A program made the translations under genes and the position numbers. A stretch of 63,848 nt of DNA, filler included, from Stramenopiles sp. TOSAG23-3 (Eukaryota): NCBI GenBank assembly GCA_900128585.1. It is 8 parts of 8 records of this genome, joined end to end, with 100 filler letters (N's around TTAATTAATTAA, not from the genome) between each part and the next. Parts side by side here need not be neighbours in the genome. Positions count along the whole stretch, not along the records: positions 20,236 to 30,250 come from LT642858.1; 7 more parts are not named here. One strand, given 5' to 3'. Within the stretch, counting starts at the first letter, position 1. Every line of letters begins with the position of its first letter. The notes beneath the pieces are model-generated. The model did not search any database, had not been told where the DNA came from, and was given only the letters and a program-made list of their open reading frames with translations. This document shows, piece after piece, positions 10,123 to 62,277 of this stretch.

Positions 10123-13005
10123 CGGGACTCGTCCGAAGAGCCGGAGGTGGAGAACGCGGAGGGGAGCAACAACGAAAGCGACGACGAGAGAAAGAGGCGC
10201 CGAAAAGAGCGCCGAAGGAAGAAGAAGCAGCGGGAGGAAAACATAGACGACGGCGAGGCGGGGGAGGGCGAGGGGAGGGAGGACGACAGTAGAGCGGCCC
10301 ACCGGCGCCGGCGCAGGAAGAAGCAGCAGGGGGAGGCCGAGGAGGGGGGCGCTGGCGGGGAGGAGAACGAGGAGAACGATGCCAGCAGCGAGAAAAAGAA
10401 GAAGAAGAAAAAGAAGAAGCGGGACAAGAAGAAGAAGGGTAGAAGCGACGACGAGGACGGGGACGACGCGACGGAGCGACGGACGCAGACCACGTCCGTG
10501 GCCAAAAGCAAGGCCAACTTTGACTATCGCCAGGTCCTCGGCTCGCTCGTCAAGTTCACCCGCAAGTTTCGCAACCCGGAGAAGCCGGAGATGCCAGACT
10601 TCAAACTCGACTTTCGCCGGGTCAAGGATCCCGTCCTGATGGTCCAGATGCACGGGACCGACCAGCTCGCCCAGGACCCTTACGTGTCCCACCCCTTGGT
10701 GAAAGTGCACATCGTCGACTCGCAGACGGGCGAGTACATCGAAAAGGAGGACGCCCAGGTCCCGTCCGTGAGCCTGCTCGAGCGGCAGACCACGATACAG
10801 GTGAACCGGGCAGACGGCCTGAGCGTGACACGCTCGTCCGACTCGTGCCGCCACGTGGTGCCCATGATGACCATGCCCTGCGACCTGGGGGCGCAGGGGC
10901 GACACGGCGCAAAGCTTGTGTGGGACGAGGAGAAGGGCAAACTGCTATTTGGGGAGACGTACAAGACGTTCTTGAACGCCAACGTTCTGTTTCTGTTCGA
11001 GGTCCTCGACTTCGTCCCGGGCGCACCCCAGTCCAAGCTGCGCGATGGAAAGGGCTGGTACCGGATTGCGTGGGCGTTTCTCCACGCCGTCGGGAGGAAT
11101 GGCGGGGCGAACATTGGGAAAACGGACACGCAGGTCCCGAAGAAGCTCCGCCTGCAGCTGTACCGCCACACGGACCAGAGCCTCGCCAGCCAGGCCCACG
11201 CCCGCGCCTGGCACAAGAGCAAAGTGACGAAGGGCGGCATCGTCCCCGACGTCTTCTTTTCGTACATGGCGCAGGACAGGGCCGTGTACCCGTCGACGAT
11301 CTACTGCACGATCACGGGCGTCCGGGCGCCGAAGAAGGCCCGGGTCGAGACCCCGCCGATGCACTTCAACCAGAAGGAGCGGCACCAGCTGAGCTTTGCC
11401 CAGGCGATCGCCGCCGGGGAGGTGGAGCCGGAGAGCAAGACGTTCGGCGGAGAGGTCGACGAGAAGGCGAAGCGCGTCCTTCGACGGTCGCGCGGGAACG
11501 GGGAGGCGTGCCTCGTCCCGGACACCGTGTCGGCGAGAATACCCTGCGGCAACGGCTGCTTCGCCCTGTCGTTCTCCAACAGCGGCAAGTACTTGGCCGC
11601 CGCCTGCCGTGACGACCTGCTGTACCCCATTCGCATCTTCGAAGTGGACAGCGGGAAATCGTGGCCCTGGGGCGACTTCCTCGGGCACCACGCCATCGTC
11701 TACACGCTGAAGTGGATGAAGGGGGACAAGATGCTGGCCTCCGCCTCCGGGGACGGCACCGTCCGGCTGTGGATGACCCCCTCCAAGGCCTGGGTGGATC
11801 AAGGCCCCGCCGAAGCCGCCCCGGAGGCCGTGGAGGCCGACGGCGGCCTCAGCCCCCGCACGGCCCAGCGGACCGCCGCCGCGGAGGCGAGTGCGCAGGT
11901 CGTCACCCTGCTCCATTCCCCGCCCTGCTACGTATACAGCGCCGTCTTTCACCCGATGGCGGACCCGCCCGTGGTCGTGTCCGCTGCCTTTGACGGCAAT
12001 CTTCGGGTGTGGGACGCCCGCGCCCAGGACGAATTTTCGTCCTCGAAGCGGGACCGTTTCAAAGGCCTGATTAAGAGCGGGATCCACAAGACCAGGGTGA
12101 ACTGCCTGACGTTTGACAAGCGGGGGCTGAAGCTGTTCTCGGCGGACGCCAACGGCATCGTGATCGTATGGCGCTGCCACGGGGACATGAGCGACCCCCT
12201 GTCATACAGCCTCCTCAAACGGGTAGACATCATGGGCTCGAAGCCCATCCACTCCATCGATTTTTGCCGAGAGCACCTTCTGATCCACGCCGAGTCCAAC
12301 ATCCTCCGAGTCGTGGAGCTGAAGAAGTACCAGCAGCTTCACGATGGCTTCAGTGGCGTGCAGAGCGGCTCGTCAAACATTGGCAGCTGCCTCAGCCCCG
12401 ACGGCCGGTGGGTCCTGGCCGGGTCAGAGGACGGCCGCGCGCACACCTGGTACACGCGAAGCTCCGCTGCCTACAAGAATCCCCTCTCCTCCCACTGCTA
12501 CGGGGGAAAGCTTTGCGGGGTCGCGTGGCACCAGACGCAGCACGTGGTGGCGCTTTGCAGCTACGCCGACGGGTCTCCCATCTTGCTGCTGGAGGCCGAC
12601 CGCGACAAAGTGGCGAACCCGATCGACGACCAGGCCACGGCCTTGCCCGAGCACGGTGCCACGAAGAAGGACGGAAAGTTGGACGCGACGGCGATTTTCG
12701 ACGGCGTCGAGTTTACCGAAGACCAAATGAGGGAGGTCGAAGCGGAGCGCATGGAGACGCGGAAAAATTTCGCAACTTCGCTGCGCGAAAGTTTGCAGGA
12801 AAGCAACCCAGCGCTGCAGCGGCTGTTCAGCAGCCCCGCTGCCAATGGGAGGCGTGGCATGGGAAGTAGCCTGGATACTTCGCTGAGAAAGACGAACACG
12901 GACCCCGACATGCTAAATGAGAGCAGTGCGATGGAGAGAATCCGCGCCAGGCGCCGGGCAAAGAAAGAACGTGCGGAGGCCTTGCAGGCGTCCATCGGGG
13001 AATAA
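10123..13005 (+). CDS. AHI1: Jouberin-like ciliary transition-zone protein (C2-like domain plus WD40), 5'-partial
   Basis: HPLVKVHIVD, PMMTMPCDL, FLFEVLDF, WYRIAWAFL, LRLQLY, YPSTIY, then WD40 repeats (GHHAIVY, ASASGDGTVRLW, CYVYSAVFHP). Confidence 0.88.
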   Translation, partial: RDSSEEPEVENAEGSNNESDDERKRRRKERRRKKKQREENIDDGEAGEGEGREDDSRAAHRRRRRKKQQGEAEEGGAGGEENEENDASSEKKKKKKKKKRDKKKKGRSDDEDGDDATERRTQTTSVAKSKANFDYRQVLGSLVKFTRKFRNPEKPEMPDFKLDFRRVKDPVLMVQMHGTDQLAQDPYVSHPLVKVHIVDSQTGEYIEKEDAQVPSVSLLERQTTIQVNRADGLSVTRSSDSCRHVVPMMTMPCDLGAQGRHGAKLVWDEEKGKLLFGETYKTFLNANVLFLFEVLDFVPGAPQSKLRDGKGWYRIAWAFLHAVGRNGGANIGKTDTQVPKKLRLQLYRHTDQSLASQAHARAWHKSKVTKGGIVPDVFFSYMAQDRAVYPSTIYCTITGVRAPKKARVETPPMHFNQKERHQLSFAQAIAAGEVEPESKTFGGEVDEKAKRVLRRSRGNGEACLVPDTVSARIPCGNGCFALSFSNSGKYLAAACRDDLLYPIRIFEVDSGKSWPWGDFLGHHAIVYTLKWMKGDKMLASASGDGTVRLWMTPSKAWVDQGPAEAAPEAVEADGGLSPRTAQRTAAAEASAQVVTLLHSPPCYVYSAVFHPMADPPVVVSAAFDGNLRVWDARAQDEFSSSKRDRFKGLIKSGIHKTRVNCLTFDKRGLKLFSADANGIVIVWRCHGDMSDPLSYSLLKRVDIMGSKPIHSIDFCREHLLIHAESNILRVVELKKYQQLHDGFSGVQSGSSNIGSCLSPDGRWVLAGSEDGRAHTWYTRSSAAYKNPLSSHCYGGKLCGVAWHQTQHVVALCSYADGSPILLLEADRDKVANPIDDQATALPEHGATKKDGKLDATAIFDGVEFTEDQMREVEAERMETRKNFATSLRESLQESNPALQRLFSSPAANGRRGMGSSLDTSLRKTNTDPDMLNESSAMERIRARRRAKKERAEALQASIGE

Positions 13006-22364: not shown

Positions 22365-23584
22365 AGAAAGGAAATGATGAGGAGAGAAGGAAAGAGAGTA
22401 GTAAGAAAGAAAAAGGAAAAAAAAAAGAAGAAGAAGGAGGAGGACAGAAGAAGAAGGAAAGAAAGAAAGAAAGAGCAAATTAATTGCCTTCGCCTTCGCG
22501 CACTTTTATATATATTGTTATACTGTGTATATGTATTTAAATTATTTCCAATTTCTATCGTTTCATATTTTCCCTCCTTGATTGAAGCTGTAAGATGTCA
22601 TGTTTTAAGAGCGTTATTAGAGAGAGAGGCATGTTATATATATAGATACAGTAGTAAGAGCGCCTATTATTATTATAATTAAAATACACTGTAACTGTTT
22701 ATTATCAGTACAGCACAGCAGTACAAACAGCTCCTTCCTTTAAAATAATATAGACTCTTCCATACTGTTACTGGTCCTGTTACTGTATTATCTCCAATGT
22801 ATTACATTATTTTTTGTTTTTTTTACTCAAAAGCTAAAATGGCGACGAGACGACCACCGAACAACAAAAAAGATTTGAATGAAACCAAATAAGTCATAAT
22901 TAAGGATATATATATATATGTAATAATTACATATGCTATTTATATATATTAGAGGTATATTGTATCACTTTTTTAATTATATTTAATATTGAGAAAGGAT
23001 TTCATCTAAATTCCTATATACACAATGGTATAATACTTCCAAAAGATCTCATACCATTATCTCTATAAACACATATCCTTAATTGTAGATGGTTTCTCTT
23101 CTCTTTCCTCCTTTCCAGCCCAGCCCTCGTCTGTGTAATTAATTATTGTGATATTTTATAGGAATTATTAATTAATAGTCCGTCCTATCTCTTATTGTAT
23201 TAATTATAAATCACTCGCTGTCTTCTCTTGCTTCTTCTTAAACAGTATAGTAGTAACATTCTTCTTCATTTTTTTATTATATTTTTTTAAAGTTAGTAAT
23301 AATAATAATAATAATAATATAATAATATTATTATTTTTTTGATTTTCAATTTTTTATTATTACATATTTTTAATATAATATACTACACGATAAACATTAA
23401 TTATTTTTTTATCATTCATACATCATTTGCGTCAGAGATAAAATTGAATGCATTTCTTATCAAAGTACCATCCAACCGAACGACGAACGAACGACTGACG
23501 TTTTGGACCGTGTTATTGTTTGTTTCTTTTTGTTCAACCAACAGAGACGTCCTTCCCTCCCCCCCCCCCCTCCTTCCTTCGCCC

Positions 23585-26374
23585 ATGTCCAACAACGTGC
23601 GCCCGACGGGGAACCAGCTGGACGCCCTGTTGAACAAGTCCAAGGACTTGTTGTCAACCACAAGCGCGCCAAGACTGAAACGCGGGCTTGCTCAGATCGA
23701 GCTGGACTCGGAGAACTTTTATGGCCAGCAGATAAACAGTTCGACGAACAGGGACGAGGCGGCCCGGCGGAAGGGCCTGATCCTCCTGGCGCAGAAGAAG
23801 ATCGACACGGAGGCCCACGAGAAGGCCCATGAGCTCGTCGACCTGAAGAACAACACCGTGTCCATGGAAAGCTACGTCGCGGACACTGACATCGAGGGGC
23901 ACCTGAAGCAGTACCACGACACCGTAATCGTTCAGGCGCTGAGAGACAGCATGAAAACGACCAACGTCCAGTACGAGCGCCGCGTCAGCCGGAAGCTGGG
24001 GGAGGACTGGAAGGCGGCCCAGAACGAGCTGCTGTCCGCGCTCGGGCAGCGCCAAGGGACCCTGTCGAACGTTCCCACGAACCAGCACTTTCAGCAGTCG
24101 TACGGCGGCCAGCCGCAGCTCGGCGACCGGCCCTCCTCCCTGGGCGCGCACCGCGTGCCCACCACGCCGCAGCCGCAGCAGCAGCAGTCGATGGCCCTGC
24201 TCGGGGACGGGTTCTCCTCCAATCCGCCGCGCCTGTCCCCGCGCGAGGGCGCGTACTTCGAGGTCGTCAAGCGGATGAACCGGATGCGCGTCCCAGGGAA
24301 GAACCTTCGGTACCCGATATTCACCCAGCTCTTGGACGCGGAGCCGAACCACCTCGACAGCGAGGAGGACATCCAGCGCACGGAGTGCTGGGAGTTCCTG
24401 CAGTCGCTCGTGGGCGAGTCCGGGCACGCGACGAGCGTGCACGGGTACAACGGGCCGTCCCAGTCCGCGTACTTGACGAAGCGGAAGGACTGCCGGAACA
24501 AGCCGGAGGACCTGGTCTTCGTGACGCTGGACGAGGAGGGCGGCATGGGCCGGGTCCAGCAGAACTCGATAATCGAGAGAAACATTAGATACCTTGAGAA
24601 GTCCTGGCGGGCGGCGTGCCTGGACGACGATTCGGACGGGATCGTCCCCCAGGACAAAATAGTTACGTACCTGAACAGCCCAGGAAAGCGGGACCCCTGG
24701 GGCATGGTCTACTGCTACCTCCGCTGCGGGGACGTCACGTCCGCGATCGCGCTGATGGACAAGATCAAGCTCCACCAGGCGGACACGAACATCGACACGC
24801 GCTACTGCTCGGACGACGAGATGGGGGCCGTGGTGACCGCCCTCATGGTCTGGAAGGCCAAGCGGGAGGGGCGCGGCCCCGCCGTGCTCGAGGAGAAGCA
24901 CATGAAGCAGATCGAGGAGGGGATCAACCAGGCCCGGGACTACAAGAAGGCGGTGCTGATCTACATCTGCCAGATCAACGGCGGCGGCCGGCAGACCAAC
25001 ACGGGGACGATGCCGAAGCAGCTAAAGAGTATCGAGAAGGAGATGCACGTGGAGGACATCATGTGGCGCCACCTGTGCGTCATTTTTGCGGACAAGCGGA
25101 CGGTGTCGGAGTCCAGGGAGCCGTTCACGCTGGCGGATCTGGCCAACCTGATGACGAACCACTACGGCCCGGACCAGTTCCCGAACTACTTCATGGTCCT
25201 CCTGCTGTGCCTGAAGTTCGAGGATGCCCTGGCGCACCTGTACGTCATCGGGCGGCGGATGGACGCTATTCATTTCGCCATCGCCCTGGACCACTACGGG
25301 CTGCTGCGGCGGGTGAACGAGGGCTCCGCGCTCACCCGGAGGATCGCCAGCGGGGCGTACATCGATGAGCGGGAGAACTTTCAGCTGGGGCAGATGCTCT
25401 TCGACTACTTCGAGCCGCACTTCGGGTCCGAGCTCGGGGTCGAAATGGCGGCCGAGTACTTTGCGTTCCTCTCCCAGCCCTCGACGGGGACATCGGCGAG
25501 CATGCTGGGGACGGGGTCGATGTCGCACCTGAGCATGTCGTCCGGGCACGACGAGCGGAACCGCTTCATGTCCCACCTGCTCGTCAAGGTGCCGGAGCGG
25601 CTCTTGACAAAGATGCTGATCGGGGACATCTTCGACCGGCAAAACTCGTACCCCATGGAAGCGTACATCAGCGACAACGCCTCCGGGGGCGGGGTGGACC
25701 GGATCATGCGAATGGCCGCCCGCATTGCGGATGAACAGGGGGCGTGGAACCGGGCAATCGTGCTCCACATGCGCTGCAAGCAGTACAATCGGGCAGTGGA
25801 GCTGGTCAACAACCAGCTGGGCCAGTCCATCGTAGAGCGGAGCAGCTCGGAGGCGAAGAAGACACATTTGCGCCTGGCGGCCGACATCCTGCAGTGGCTG
25901 GCCGAATCCGGCACCAAAGAGAAAGTCGACGACCGCAAGCTTACCACCCTGCACCTGCTGCTCGACATGGAGGAATTTTTCCAGCTTGCGTACAACCAGA
26001 ACTACGACCAAGCGCTGCAGACGAACACGGCCGTCCTGTTCCCCATCAGCGGGGACGACGTCGAGCGCAGCGCCAAGCGCCAAAAGTTCAACCAGCTGGA
26101 AGAGCCGGTGACGAAGAACCTGGACGTCCTCTTGGTCTCGTACATGGGCTGCCTGGTCAAGTCCTACGAAGATGCCGTACAAAAGGTCCAAGGCGGTGGC
26201 GGGGGCTGGGGTACGACGACGACCAGGGCCTACAACGACAAGCGGGACGAGACCATGCGAAGGGCAAAGGCGCTCATGAACTTTGCAAACCACGAGCTTC
26301 CCCAACAATTTAGACTGAAGCGCGAGACGCACGAAGAGCTGACCAATTTAGACATGAGGATTCAGTACGGTTGA
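23585..26374 (+). CDS. NUP93: Nucleoporin Nup93/Nic96
   Basis: PRLKRGLAQIE, DTDIEGHLK, WGMVYCYLRCGD, YFMVLLLCLKFEDA, DAIHFAIALDHYGLL. Confidence 0.9.
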   Translation: MSNNVRPTGNQLDALLNKSKDLLSTTSAPRLKRGLAQIELDSENFYGQQINSSTNRDEAARRKGLILLAQKKIDTEAHEKAHELVDLKNNTVSMESYVADTDIEGHLKQYHDTVIVQALRDSMKTTNVQYERRVSRKLGEDWKAAQNELLSALGQRQGTLSNVPTNQHFQQSYGGQPQLGDRPSSLGAHRVPTTPQPQQQQSMALLGDGFSSNPPRLSPREGAYFEVVKRMNRMRVPGKNLRYPIFTQLLDAEPNHLDSEEDIQRTECWEFLQSLVGESGHATSVHGYNGPSQSAYLTKRKDCRNKPEDLVFVTLDEEGGMGRVQQNSIIERNIRYLEKSWRAACLDDDSDGIVPQDKIVTYLNSPGKRDPWGMVYCYLRCGDVTSAIALMDKIKLHQADTNIDTRYCSDDEMGAVVTALMVWKAKREGRGPAVLEEKHMKQIEEGINQARDYKKAVLIYICQINGGGRQTNTGTMPKQLKSIEKEMHVEDIMWRHLCVIFADKRTVSESREPFTLADLANLMTNHYGPDQFPNYFMVLLLCLKFEDALAHLYVIGRRMDAIHFAIALDHYGLLRRVNEGSALTRRIASGAYIDERENFQLGQMLFDYFEPHFGSELGVEMAAEYFAFLSQPSTGTSASMLGTGSMSHLSMSSGHDERNRFMSHLLVKVPERLLTKMLIGDIFDRQNSYPMEAYISDNASGGGVDRIMRMAARIADEQGAWNRAIVLHMRCKQYNRAVELVNNQLGQSIVERSSSEAKKTHLRLAADILQWLAESGTKEKVDDRKLTTLHLLLDMEEFFQLAYNQNYDQALQTNTAVLFPISGDDVERSAKRQKFNQLEEPVTKNLDVLLVSYMGCLVKSYEDAVQKVQGGGGGWGTTTTRAYNDKRDETMRRAKALMNFANHELPQQFRLKRETHEELTNLDMRIQYG

Positions 26375-26520
26375 AAGGCCTGGTCTGCGTTGGTGAGAAA
26401 TTCATTTTATCATTACTCATAAAATGTGCTAAATAAATTCGTAGTATTATGATATAGTTGTTAATAATAATATGAGCCAATTTTTTGTTATTAGTATAAA
26501 TTACCGCCGGTTTTATTAAT

Positions 26521-26546
26521 AATAACAGCCAATTTTTTCTTGTTTT
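26521..26546 (-). repeat. Dispersed repeat family copy (reverse)
   Basis: aataacagccaattttttcttgtttt. Confidence 0.8.
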
Positions 26547-26725
26547 ATTAATTTGACCGTAGTGCACACACCGTCAATTTCCTATAATACCAGTACGGGT
26601 ACCTTACCCAACAGGTATAAAACCGTAAGCATACCGTTTTTAATTTTATTTTAACTACGAACATGGTTACTCCTAGAGATGAGAGGGCACGCTTTTTCTT
26701 AAATTAGAGCGTACCCGTTTTGAAC

Positions 26726-27964
26726 TCAAACATACCCGGTGAGTGCAAAGTTCCATGTCACGCCAACCACAATCCCGCCTGCAAACATCGCCGGAACCCC
26801 AATGAAAGACTGAATCATCCCAATAGCGCAACCAGATATTCCGTGGCCAGAGGTACATCCGGCTGCCATTCGTGCACCAAATATCATCAAGAACCCGCCA
26901 AGAATGGACGATGCAGGGGTAACACCGGGTGATTTGCCAAAGTCGCCGACCAAACTCTCCCAAAAAAAGGACCCGATGATTGCAAACCCACAGTATCCAA
27001 GCTGCCACCATTTTGCCACGCTCGGAGAAGCAAACGATGCGATGTACGGGAAGTTTTTGCGCACACTTTTTGCGAAAGGAATGGCCCAGACGCTGGAGCA
27101 TACTTGGTATGATGTCGCCGACCCCAGGAATGTCCCAATGACCAAAACTGCGGGAATTTGAAGAAGCCCAAGCAAAATTCCACAGGCAGACGACGGCAAC
27201 GCAGGGCAGAGTAACGGATTGAACGATGACGGGTCGCAGATATCGGATGCCAGCGCACTTTGCAGACGCTCCGGAAGGTCTTTTCTCCAATCAACCAGAA
27301 TCTCGAGGATAATCGCAAAAAGGATGCAGCCCACACCCAGGCTCGTGGCAAACAGGTGGTAAGGTTTGTTGATAAACTTATCAAAATACACAAATTTGGT
27401 AGGGCCCTGGGGGCCTCTACGGAGCCAATACACCTCTATCCGTTGCTGCAACAAGCCATATATTAACGCGCCCAGTAAGCCCCCAGCAACCGTCAGCCCG
27501 GAGTTTTCAACCCCCGACCCAACCTGGGACAGAACCATACCAGGGCACGCGCCAGCAATCGCCATGCCCATTCCTAAAACGAACGTCCCCGTGATAGTCC
27601 CAGTAAGCCAACCACGCGTGCGGGTCACGGACTCCCATGCTCTCCTGCAATCATCAAACTGTTTTGTGCAGGTACGCGACAGCACAGCAAGGCACAACGC
27701 TCCTGTGCCCATTGCTGCAAGAAACATTTTTAACATGATGAAGTTCGTAAAGATGAACTGTTTTCGAATGATCAACGGCTCAAACACGTGGCTTTTAGCA
27801 AACGTTGACCCAAACACAAGCCCCATGCACACGGTGGTGACTGTAATCTGTAAAATCTGGCATGTTGTACGCTTGGCCTCGGGTTCGCTGTCGTCTTTGG
27901 AAGAGTCCTTGACGACACTTTTTTCTGTGTATGATTCGTGTTTTTCCATCGTTCTTTGGCGCAT
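26726..27964 (-). CDS. YeeE/YedE (DUF395) sulfur/thiosulfate transporter family protein
   Basis: About 9 Gly-rich TM segments with both signature motifs, GMAIAGACPG and FGARMAAGCTSGHGISG. Confidence 0.92.
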   Translation of the reverse strand: MRQRTMEKHESYTEKSVVKDSSKDDSEPEAKRTTCQILQITVTTVCMGLVFGSTFAKSHVFEPLIIRKQFIFTNFIMLKMFLAAMGTGALCLAVLSRTCTKQFDDCRRAWESVTRTRGWLTGTITGTFVLGMGMAIAGACPGMVLSQVGSGVENSGLTVAGGLLGALIYGLLQQRIEVYWLRRGPQGPTKFVYFDKFINKPYHLFATSLGVGCILFAIILEILVDWRKDLPERLQSALASDICDPSSFNPLLCPALPSSACGILLGLLQIPAVLVIGTFLGSATSYQVCSSVWAIPFAKSVRKNFPYIASFASPSVAKWWQLGYCGFAIIGSFFWESLVGDFGKSPGVTPASSILGGFLMIFGARMAAGCTSGHGISGCAIGMIQSFIGVPAMFAGGIVVGVTWNFALTGYV

Positions 27965-28447
27965 ACCTGGTCCTGGGGATAGGGATAATATGCTTCTTTA
28001 AAGGTCAGAATTAGAATTAATGACCAATGTCTCCAAGGCGAAAGATATCTTTGGGATTATAAACGTAAACGGTCGTAACAACGGTTGGGTATAGTTTACG
28101 TGATTATATTGATCTAGTTTAAATTAGTCAAGGAGGTTCTTGGTTGTTCTTCTCTTCCTTTGTTTGTGTTTCTTTTATTTCGTTTCGTTTCGTTCTTCTT
28201 TTTTTTTTTTTTTTAAAGAGGGGAGGAGAGGATAGAGAAGAAGAAAAAGAAAGAAGAAGAAATTAATGATGATGGATGATGATGTGTATTACTTTTTGTC
28301 ATTTGCTACATGAACACAGCATTCCACCCACCCACCTGTCACCCGTCGTATGATTAAAAAAACATTTGGTCACAGCAGGTGGCACTCAGGATTCAGGTTC
28401 ATTTTTTTAATATGATCGAAATAAATTAAATCTTTCTTTCTTTCGAC

Positions 28448-28449
<2 letters not shown>

Positions 28450-28507
<58 letters not shown>

Positions 28508-28510
28508 TCC
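28450..28510. repeat. (TTTC)n microsatellite
   Basis: Read directly from the sequence. Confidence 0.9.
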
Positions 28511-28975
28511 CCTCCCTCCTGCCTCCTGTGATGATGCTCTGCTGCAAATGTACACTTGATGACAGCTGCCGTTTACTTCTTCGGTGTTGGTCTAAAAGCT
28601 GCCCCCTGGCTTTACAATTGTTTCATTCTATTTTTATGCTGTGTTATGTATAATGTTAATTATTTTTCAATAATGGGGCAAATGCATCATGAAATTATAT
28701 TATTTCTTTTTTTAAATACCCACAACACCATCACGAGGAGGGGGGTATAATATTATAACAAAAGATGATGATGATAGTAATAGTAGAAGAGAACAAGAGA
28801 ACAAAGGATGGACAATTAAATTACATCATGTCTTCTTTCCCACAGAATAAATGTATGAAACAATAAAGTTAAAATATACAGGTAAGAAACGGGAACAAGA
28901 ACAGAATCAATATACAAAGAGAATATTTACTGCAGAAGAATAGGAAATACAACAAAACGAATCAACAATTGCAAG

Positions 28976-30028
28976 ATGAGTTGCGAAGAAGAAGCATTTC
29001 CCAAATTAACGAAAGCGTCGATTGCCAGGGTAGAGAACCCCATCGTCGTTGATACTCGCAAAACGGAAGATAGGGCTAGCGCCACGGAAGCCAATGTTGT
29101 TCCTGGAAGCCTTAATATTCCGTATGATAAAGAAAGCGATGCATTTGATGTAGACCAGTTAGAAAATCTTGGGGTTGCGAAAGACGCCGCCGTACTCGTT
29201 CACTGCTACAGAGGTAATAGTGCGAAGTTGGTCTGCAAGCACCTGACCGCTGCAGGGTTTACCAACGTGTCGAACGGCGTGAACGCTGGCGCGATTCTAG
29301 CGGCCAGGGCACACGATAACAACGTTTTGATTCGTCAGTTTTTTGACCGTGAATCCTGCACATACACTTACCTACTAGTGGATAAAGCGACCCGTGATGC
29401 AGTCCTCATTGATCCAGTCATTGAGCTGGTGGACAGGGACATTGAGGCGCTTGAAAGTGTTGGCGCAAAGTTATTGTACGTTTTGAACACCCACGTCCAC
29501 GCAGACCATGTTACCGGGACCGGAGTGTTGAAACAAAAGTACGCAGAGAGGGATGTGGCAGTGAAAAGTGTAATATCCAAAGCCTCTGGTGCGCAGGCGG
29601 ATTTGCAATTGGAAGACGGGGACGTGATCTCGTTCGGGCACCAGACTCTCGTGTCGAAGAATACCCCAGGCCACACACCCGGGTGTGTGACGTACATGCT
29701 GAACAACAACACGCACGCCTTTTGTGGCGATACGTTGCTCATTCGCGGGTGCGGAAGGACAGACTTTCAAGGTGGCGATCCTGCCACGCTTTACGATAGC
29801 GTGTGGGTAAACCTGTTTTCGATGCCAGACTCTACCGTGCTGTACCCCGCCCACGACTACAACGGAAGGCTTTACACGACAGTAGGGGAAGAGAAAAAGT
29901 TCAACCCACGCCTTTCTAAATCAAAAGATGAATTCGTCGAGCTCATGCTGAAACGATTTGATGGGTCGAAGTATCCAAAGAAAATTGACGCGGCGCTGCC
30001 GGCCAATATGCAATGCGGCGTGTATTGA
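28976..30028 (+). CDS. ETHE1: Rhodanese-persulfide dioxygenase (ETHE1-type) fusion
   Basis: N-terminal rhodanese (VVDTR, VPGSLNIP, VHCYRGNSA, GFTNV). C-terminal PDO (RQFFDRESCTYTYLL, THVHADHVTG, TPGHTPGC, GDTLLIRGCGRTDFQGG, PAHDY, PANMQCG). Confidence 0.95.
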   Translation: MSCEEEAFPKLTKASIARVENPIVVDTRKTEDRASATEANVVPGSLNIPYDKESDAFDVDQLENLGVAKDAAVLVHCYRGNSAKLVCKHLTAAGFTNVSNGVNAGAILAARAHDNNVLIRQFFDRESCTYTYLLVDKATRDAVLIDPVIELVDRDIEALESVGAKLLYVLNTHVHADHVTGTGVLKQKYAERDVAVKSVISKASGAQADLQLEDGDVISFGHQTLVSKNTPGHTPGCVTYMLNNNTHAFCGDTLLIRGCGRTDFQGGDPATLYDSVWVNLFSMPDSTVLYPAHDYNGRLYTTVGEEKKFNPRLSKSKDEFVELMLKRFDGSKYPKKIDAALPANMQCGVY

Positions 30029-30175
30029 GTCTTTGAACAGTGTAAATATTTGAAAAGGAGGCGTAGGACCTCCCAGGCGCGGTCGTCGTCGTAGGCGCCT
30101 GTTCTTTAGGCCTCATCCGGTGTTCCACTCGTAGATGGTTCGTATTTAAAAAATTATATATCATAAGGAGATATT

Positions 30176-30350: not shown

Positions 30351-30513
<163 letters not shown>

Positions 30514-46486: not shown

Positions 46487-46560
46487 NNNNNNNNNNNNNN
46501 NNNNNNNNNNNNNNNNNNNNNNNNNNNNNNNNNNNNNNNNNNNNNNNNNNNNNNNNNNNN
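46487..46560. other. Scaffold gap (74 N, no linker) after (GAAA)n
   Basis: N run without TTAATTAATTAA. Confidence 0.95.
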
Positions 46561-62177: not shown

Positions 62178-62277
62178 NNNNNNNNNNNNNNNNNNNNNNN
62201 NNNNNNNNNNNNNNNNNNNNNTTAATTAATTAANNNNNNNNNNNNNNNNNNNNNNNNNNNNNNNNNNNNNNNNNNNN
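62178..62277. other. Artificial contig linker
   Basis: N44-TTAATTAATTAA-N44. Confidence 0.99.

Follow-up and report, generated by a model that had tools for sequence, protein, structure and literature searches.

A YeeE-like channel gene and a rhodanese-ETHE1 fusion gene lie head to head in a marine protist and may serve one sulfane-sulfur pathway

Results

Two transcribed genes lie head to head

We analysed a stretch of 63,848 nucleotides (the window) made of eight joined records of Stramenopiles sp. TOSAG23-3 (assembly GCA_900128585.1), one of which, LT642858.1, carries a YeeE-like membrane protein gene beside a gene for a rhodanese fused to an ETHE1-type persulfide dioxygenase. The YeeE-like gene (26726..27964, minus strand) was recognised from its open reading frame (ORF), a PF04143 match and a structure model, and encodes a 412-aa YeeE/YedE-fold membrane protein of a two-cysteine eukaryotic subfamily. 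The fusion gene (28976..30028, plus strand) was recognised from its ORF, Pfam matches and full-length relatives, and encodes a protein of 350 aa. Persulfide dioxygenase is central to sulfide detoxification and its loss causes ethylmalonic encephalopathy in people. An earlier description made from the DNA alone (the sequence-only reading) had placed the two genes in divergent orientation about 1.0 kb apart, and the ORFs were found as described with an ATG-to-ATG spacing of 1,011 bp (27965-28975). An in-frame stop lies 13 codons 5' of the YeeE-like ATG and another lies 31 codons 5' of the fusion ATG with no ATG between, indicating that both N-termini as read are sound and that the enzyme has no space for a targeting presequence. 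The pair is a eukaryotic variant of the known bacterial pairing of a transporter with a dioxygenase.

To follow the transcripts, contigs from four mapped runs were compared with the window. X9 (an oligo-dT library) and X11 are RNA from two studies, and X3 and X5 are DNA metagenome runs; the contigs tell nothing about expression levels. RNA contigs covered the YeeE-like gene from 26491 to 28091 (X11) and from 26516 to 28105 (X9), and the fusion gene from 28929 to 30140 (X11) and from 28954 to 30147 (X9). All were colinear with the DNA with zero joints. Both genes are thus intronless, as had been proposed, and apparently give separate divergent messages. The divergent contig ends lie 824-863 bp apart and give only a weak hint of the transcript ends. 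On this approximate basis the YeeE-like transcript has a 5' untranslated leader at 27965..28105 and a 3' untranslated end at 26491..26725 (both minus strand), and the fusion transcript has a leader at 28929..28975 and a 3' untranslated end at 30029..30147 (both plus strand). Between them lies a spacer (28106..28928) in which the RNA shows a gap while the DNA contig continues, and which we presume to be the promoter region for both genes. No RNA contig from X9 or X11 fell within 28148-28807; the DNA contig X5 record 17 continues to 28417. The stretch was present in 20 of 24 listed public runs from 14 studies, comprising marine metagenomes and metatranscriptomes, 7 of them recorded as RNA.

The fusion joins a rhodanese domain to an ETHE1-like dioxygenase

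The N-terminal part of the fusion is a rhodanese domain (aa 21-100; 29036..29275, plus strand) that matched PF00581 with E=9.9e-06 and 26.4 bits against a cut-off of 22.2. It is followed by a PF00753 Lactamase_B match (E=5.2e-20, residues 131-293) within a persulfide dioxygenase domain that spans aa 114-349 (29315..30022, plus strand) and was assigned from its matches to ETHE1 structures. Against solved structures this domain matched human ETHE1 (4chl, E=3.3e-77), the Arabidopsis enzyme (2gcu, E=1.2e-72) and BpPRF (5ve3, E=2.5e-69). A model of the fusion had a pLDDT of 76.7, and a fold search ranked 4chl first at 53% identity; in this search with the complete model the dioxygenase domain outweighed the rest, so that it says little on the rhodanese fold. 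The residues H173-x-H175-x-D177-H178, H233 and D252 were invariant in 17 sequences, and presumably include the iron ligands of ETHE1 enzymes. Named animal ETHE1 proteins were 54-61% identical to the dioxygenase domain. Eleven further clusters, 55-79% identical over at least 93% of the query, carried an N-terminal rhodanese, as did one additional cluster at 99%, and the catalytic-loop Cys77 (29204-29206, plus strand; loop H-C-Y-R-G-N-S) was invariant, in the setting C-Y-R-G-N-S, in 12 N-terminal rhodanese fusions. By these comparisons the dioxygenase domain is classed as a type I (ETHE1-like) persulfide dioxygenase.

The RNA contigs begin 22-47 nt before the enzyme ATG and the N-terminus of the protein is the rhodanese domain itself. 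Judged on the predicted protein, no mitochondrial presequence was seen on the fusion. In this the window enzyme differs from mitochondrial ETHE1 (4chl, 2gcu), which provides the closest solved relatives of its dioxygenase domain, is a single-domain protein and, in animals and plants, carries a mitochondrial presequence. BpPRF of Burkholderia phytofirmans (5ve3-5ve5) likewise combines a type I dioxygenase with a single catalytic rhodanese and was 50% identical in the fold search, but its domain order is opposite and the host of the window enzyme is eukaryotic. The PRF-type order shared by BpPRF and CstB, with the dioxygenase N-terminal and the rhodanese C-terminal, is thus not that of the window enzyme. 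Rhodanese domains at the C-terminus were also seen, unlike in the window, in three bacterial loci (L051, L074 and L031) and in five protist relatives of the dioxygenase domain (P0014, P0018, P0020, P0026 and P0115, the last from Triparma).

The phylogenies that the sequence-only reading had called for were built for the YeeE and dioxygenase domains, and both gave eukaryotic groupings that argue against inheritance of a bacterial unit. In the dioxygenase tree (68 domains, made by a quick method that does not fix the deeper branching order) the window sequence fell in a clade of 24 protist-type rows (support 100, starred) that takes in every protist fusion, whether its rhodanese is N- or C-terminal, together with a chlorarachniophyte sequence and six unnamed rows. 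This clade was nested in a 49-row group (support 84) with all 10 named eukaryote rows, including animal ETHE1, and 9 metagenome rows; the remaining 19 metagenome rows (G+C 36-71%) lay on the opposite side of the tree. As the C-terminal-rhodanese relatives belong to the 24-row clade, both domain orders occur within one well-supported protist clade. The N-terminal rhodanese was 27-32% identical to the C-terminal rhodaneses of the related fusions compared, and no special kinship was seen. A simple domain swap between the two orders was considered and, at this level of rhodanese identity, was not shown. An N-terminal rhodanese followed by a dioxygenase was also found in one frame of a 63% G+C metagenome contig (L006:5294-7129) at 48% identity. 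Its dioxygenase grouped with those of L058, P0052 and the L046 fusion (support 88, not starred), apart from the window clade, suggesting that the N-terminal rhodanese order probably arose or spread more than once.

The channel belongs to a eukaryotic YeeE group with two invariant cysteines

The YeeE-like protein matched PF04143 Sulf_transp (E=1.8e-30, 107 bits against a cut-off of 27) over residues 65-398 and over positions 9-309 of the 310 in the profile. The CPG and GCTSGH motifs on which its first identification had been based were located as C140-P-G and G369-C370-T-S-G-H374. Both cysteines were invariant in a 22-sequence alignment, Cys140 in G-A-C-P-G (codon 27545..27547, minus strand) and Cys370 in G-C-T-S-G-H (codon 26855..26857, minus strand). 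A model of the channel on these 22 sequences reached a pLDDT of 86.5 and a pTM of 0.85, and all 5 matches at E<=0.001 in a structure search were YeeE entries, 6leo, 8k1r, 6lep and 8j4c among them. The 6leo entry matched with E=3.9e-07 and a TM score of 0.72 by target while the next fold reached 0.14; identity to the YeeE structures was 16-18%. In 6leo, a Spirochaeta protein, C140 aligns to the cysteine of AGGCAS and C370 to that of GGCNIGH. The YeeE(TsuA)-YeeD(TsuB) thiosulfate uptake system (6leo, 8j4c, 8k1r) shares its fold and its two central cysteines with the window channel.

The family is large: 1,469 representatives matched at E<=0.001, of which 202 reached E<=1e-30, and many marine eukaryotes have proteins annotated to it. 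Among named organisms the nearest members came from diatoms, cryptophytes, a labyrinthulomycete, a choanoflagellate and numerous marine invertebrates whose proteins bear the label 'TsuA-like', and the animal members include molluscs, annelids, echinoderms, amphioxus and Lingula. A YeeE tree of 52 rows separated cryptophyte, animal, choanoflagellate and stramenopile groups and placed the window sequence in a seven-row clade (support 99, starred) of the stramenopile group, beside a diatom clade (support 82, not starred). The closest prokaryotic relatives were sampled as 80 loci (L081-L160), 71 of them alphaproteobacterial. In 79 of these 80 the protein was split in two genes, the GCTSGH-half followed by the CPG-half, an order permuted with respect to the eukaryotic protein. 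Genes for sulfide:quinone-reductase (SQR) or a flavocytochrome/FCSD-type flavoprotein stood beside the prokaryotic relatives in 3 of 5 loci examined. Two unusual members of the family were noted. P0294 consists of two YeeE units in tandem (689 aa), and P0165 (719 aa), which groups with cryptophytes, joins a DUF442 phosphatase-like/rhodanese-like domain (PF04273) to a full YeeE of the window's type.

Transporter and dioxygenase are linked repeatedly elsewhere

The sequence-only reading had set the pair against a background of bacterial blh/YedE operons, and this background is in print in the excerpts of PMC10812762 that we used. There, YedE1E2 imports zero-valent sulfur that is then oxidised by a dioxygenase, each half of the transporter has one essential Cys, and pdo is present in 177 of 212 yedE1E2 genomes. 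The same excerpts place yedE1E2 upstream of blh in Agrobacterium, describe PmpAB in Serratia and report a yedE1-yedE2-pdo2 operon in Acinetobacter. The Proteobacterial yedE1-yedE2-blh/pdo systems, including the YedE1E2 of Cupriavidus, have in common with the window a dioxygenase-linked Sulf_transp membrane protein with one cysteine per half, and in the bacterial case sulfane sulfur reaches the enzyme through the transporter (PMC10812762). The window transporter differs in being a single 412-aa eukaryotic chain with the CPG-half first and the GCTSGH-half second, and the window pair is divergent rather than in an operon, with an ETHE1-type enzyme that bears an N-terminal rhodanese.

To look for such linkage more widely, 80 metagenome loci were fetched, with the dioxygenase fusion of the window as query, from among the matches listed. 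The best metagenome match had 60% identity to the fusion, and most of the others were dioxygenases of bacteria; the long contigs examined carried RecA, LpxB and the like, indicating that the set is mostly bacterial, and no long contig from a close relative was among the matches listed. Small YedE-type genes adjoined type I dioxygenase genes in at least 18 of the 80 loci; many contigs measure no more than 1-3 kb, so the true number may be higher. Two loci (L046:17-2479 and L078:2845-5034) carried a single frame composed of a YedE1-half, a DUF6691-half and a dioxygenase. A search with the L046 protein returned 36 relatives at E<=0.001, in which 8 clusters carried both transporter and dioxygenase domains; one was L046's own protein, and 3 of the other 7 came from EukProt transcriptomes. 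These single-chain proteins (L046, L078 and P0245-P0251) measure 668-774 aa, with the rhodanese variably present. Five chains were scanned with Pfam. P0250 and P0251 have a rhodanese (about 383-475) after the transporter and before the dioxygenase (about 512-683), and so agree with the window enzyme in placing the rhodanese ahead of the dioxygenase; the other 3 gave no Pfam match to a rhodanese. A further four clusters joined a transporter to a rhodanese only. As transporter and dioxygenase recur both as neighbours and as single-chain fusions, a functional link between the channel and the rhodanese-dioxygenase is plausible. A literature search over partial texts, with subscription journals not covered, found no paper on single-chain transporter-dioxygenase proteins, none on protist rhodanese-ETHE1 fusions and no study on the function of the eukaryotic YeeE family.

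The pair was most likely assembled within eukaryotes

The sequence-only reading had proposed a sulfane-sulfur module, co-regulated from a bidirectional promoter, that was either inherited as a unit or assembled convergently. The functional link it drew gains support from the recurrent neighbours and single-chain fusions, and inheritance as a unit was not supported. The operons that join YedE-type genes to dioxygenase fusions, in the excerpts of PMC10812762 and in at least 18 of the 80 loci, would offer a source for a pair transferred from bacteria as a blh/yedE-type operon. Blh itself (DUF442 plus dioxygenase, as in the BigR operon of Xylella and Agrobacterium) also has a sulfurtransferase-like domain at its N-terminus and YedE-type genes adjoining. 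However, the window fusion scored 99 bits against the Blh model NF040641, far below its cut-off of 625, and its N-terminal domain is PF00581, PF04273 (the DUF442-type N-domain) not having been found in it by Pfam scan. The dioxygenase clusters with protist and animal ETHE1, and the rhodanese stands at the opposite end from that in the bacterial fusions seen. The channel is one fused chain with its halves in the other order from those of its nearest prokaryotic relatives (79 of 80 loci), and the YeeE tree follows eukaryotic groups. The composition of both genes is unremarkable, with a third-position G+C content (GC3) of 0.56 and 0.57 for the YeeE-like and fusion genes, inside the 0.47-0.86 range of their neighbours, and no compositional anomaly was seen. 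Descent of the pair from a transferred bacterial operon is therefore highly improbable. The ETHE1-group enzyme, the rhodanese-first order and the fused two-cysteine channel make convergent assembly the better reading, and the eukaryotic groupings of both gene trees together with the weak likeness to blh-type counterparts suggest that the pair was most likely assembled within eukaryotes.

The junction at the (TTTC)15 tract is probably sound

The sequence-only reading had flagged a (TTTC)n tract in the spacer as a possible misassembly. A perfect (TTTC)15 microsatellite was confirmed at 28450..28509 (plus strand); an independent contig crossing it was not obtained. No contig of X3 or X5 spans 28418-28524, and contigs of both runs stop inside the tract from both sides, which is what would be seen if two loci had been joined there by the assembly. 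Such a break is also expected at a 60-nt perfect repeat, because an assembly built on 31-letter words cannot span it. X3 was without cover at 28280-28411, and the hole there carries no weight. In two independent metagenomes (X5 records 17 and 18, X3 record 10) the sequence of each flank agrees with the window as far as the tract, contig depths on either side were alike (7.4 versus 6.8 and 3.5 versus 3.3, a weak hint), and the GC3 of the two genes is alike. A misjoin at (TTTC)15 is thus unlikely, and we give an assembly artefact as the explanation of the pair very little credence.

The pair is surrounded by eukaryotic genes

The neighbours named in the sequence-only reading, Nup93 and a three-repeat MYB, were both recovered (Nup93/Nic96 with E=1.5e-62, and a match for MYB). 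Genes for a TRAP1-like HSP90, PIGA, a bromodomain protein and a HECT ligase were also found around the pair. A GC3 of 0.86 was seen in a WD40 gene and the Nup93 gene (10147-13005 and 23339-26374), compared to 0.47-0.70 in 19 other ORFs, so that codon composition differs strongly from gene to gene. The first 26 codons of a ubiquitin gene lie at 30352-30429 (minus strand), running into an N block; in positions of the stretch this fragment is about 280 bp beyond the apparent 3' end (about 30147) of the fusion transcript. Paired 44-N blocks recur every ~10.1 kb (10021, 20136, 30251, 40353, 50453 and 60507) and resemble inserted masks, not assembly gaps. Other N blocks lie at 46487-46560 and 62178-62277, and the window holds 690 N in total.

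Discussion

The explanation we favour, with a confidence that falls somewhat short of even, is that both genes reside in the nucleus of a marine protist, probably a stramenopile, that they serve one sulfane-sulfur or thiosulfate pathway and that they were assembled inside eukaryotes rather than received as an operon. In the proposed route the YeeE-fold conduit would pass thiosulfate or zero-valent sulfur across the membrane by way of the buried C370 and C140 to its cytosolic face. There, Cys77 of the rhodanese would take the sulfane sulfur and hand it to glutathione, giving glutathione persulfide, which the ETHE1-type iron dioxygenase would oxidise to sulfite. We presume that the conduit resembles its bacterial relatives in being a passive facilitator; if so, the enzyme would be the sink that sets net direction, and uptake with oxidation would be favoured. 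Physical hand-over, substrate, direction, cytosolic location and co-regulation of the pair are all inferred. A complex prediction for the channel with the whole fusion, in which alignments were not used, gave a score of 0.00 and counts neither for nor against binding.

Precedents exist for the separate steps. YeeE passes thiosulfate to a cysteine of its cytosolic partner YeeD, a small sulfur acceptor with a catalytic cysteine, and a third cysteine, C22 of the Spirochaeta YeeE, lies at the YeeD interface (PMC11073785, in excerpt). The partner proposed for the window channel differs in being a rhodanese domain rather than a TusA-fold protein. According to the summary in PMC9163753, thiosulfate is converted to glutathione persulfide by the BpPRF rhodanese.

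Several observations weigh against the explanation we favour. Only C140 and C370 were invariant among the 22 channel sequences, and unlike YeeE of the YeeE-YeeD system the window channel has no third conserved or nearly invariant cysteine. It scored 31.3 bits against 400 with the TsuA model NF052577 and 21.1 against 645 with NF041049. Together these two points mean that thiosulfate as the substrate is not assured. The fused chains found elsewhere use a YedE1 plus DUF6691 transporter and not the YeeE type of the window, a rhodanese or dioxygenase domain was present in 0 of 10 long members of the window's YeeE type, and of the 80 loci of its closest prokaryotic relatives only 6 had a dioxygenase-like gene at a distance of up to 6 kb. 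The adjacency of a YeeE-like and a rhodanese-dioxygenase gene is known from one genome only, and contig depth cannot show co-expression of the pair. By ORF coordinates the window holds six head-to-head pairs, 0.4-2.2 kb apart; with such pairs this common, orientation alone says little. A scan of the spacer for a shared motif returned low-complexity repeats only, including T-rich and purine-rich tracts at about 28140-28262.

The single adjacency, the frequency of divergent pairs, the spacer in which no shared motif was found and the rarity of a dioxygenase beside the closest prokaryotic relatives are what would be expected if the two genes were ordinary neighbours that share neither pathway nor regulation. 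The two functions are nevertheless linked repeatedly elsewhere, as neighbours and as fusions, and with few copies per family the chance adjacency of a pre-specified pair should be rare (our own estimate, not a computed one). We consider mere neighbourhood distinctly unlikely.

A different reading of the same pair is export. The persulfide would then be made internally, from sulfide or cysteine breakdown; the dioxygenase would make sulfite, the rhodanese would join sulfite and persulfide to thiosulfate, and the conduit would release it. Marine invertebrates such as molluscs and annelids excrete thiosulfate as an end product of sulfide detoxification, and such animals are well represented in the eukaryotic YeeE family. 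A passive conduit, as presumed above, would run either way, making reverse use a serious rival. The required chemistry is on record, as human TSTD1 and CstB rhodaneses catalyse the formation of thiosulfate from persulfide and sulfite (PMC9163753, in part). However, every characterised member of the family is an importer, YedE1E2 being reported to aid import and not export in the excerpts of PMC10812762, and the single-chain forms put the rhodanese next to the transporter, as an acceptor would be. Export is in our judgement unlikely, if less so than mere neighbourhood, and uptake followed by oxidation stays the direction we favour.

Beyond a shared pathway, the channel and the fusion may belong to a hard-wired eukaryotic relay in which a YeeE-fold conduit leads to a rhodanese cysteine and on to an ETHE1 dioxygenase, built as one polypeptide or, here, as a divergent pair. 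We regard this relay as doubtful, although it stands somewhat above export in our estimate.

The gene pair and the single-chain fusions elsewhere suggest a testable partner and substrate route for the eukaryotic YeeE family. Both genes are transcribed by a cosmopolitan marine protist, found in 14 studies, which is relevant to the way plankton deal with thiosulfate and reactive sulfur. If the relay is true, the orphan family of 'TsuA-like' proteins in protists and marine invertebrates would acquire both a function and a partner, and an ETHE1 pathway would operate outside the mitochondrion.

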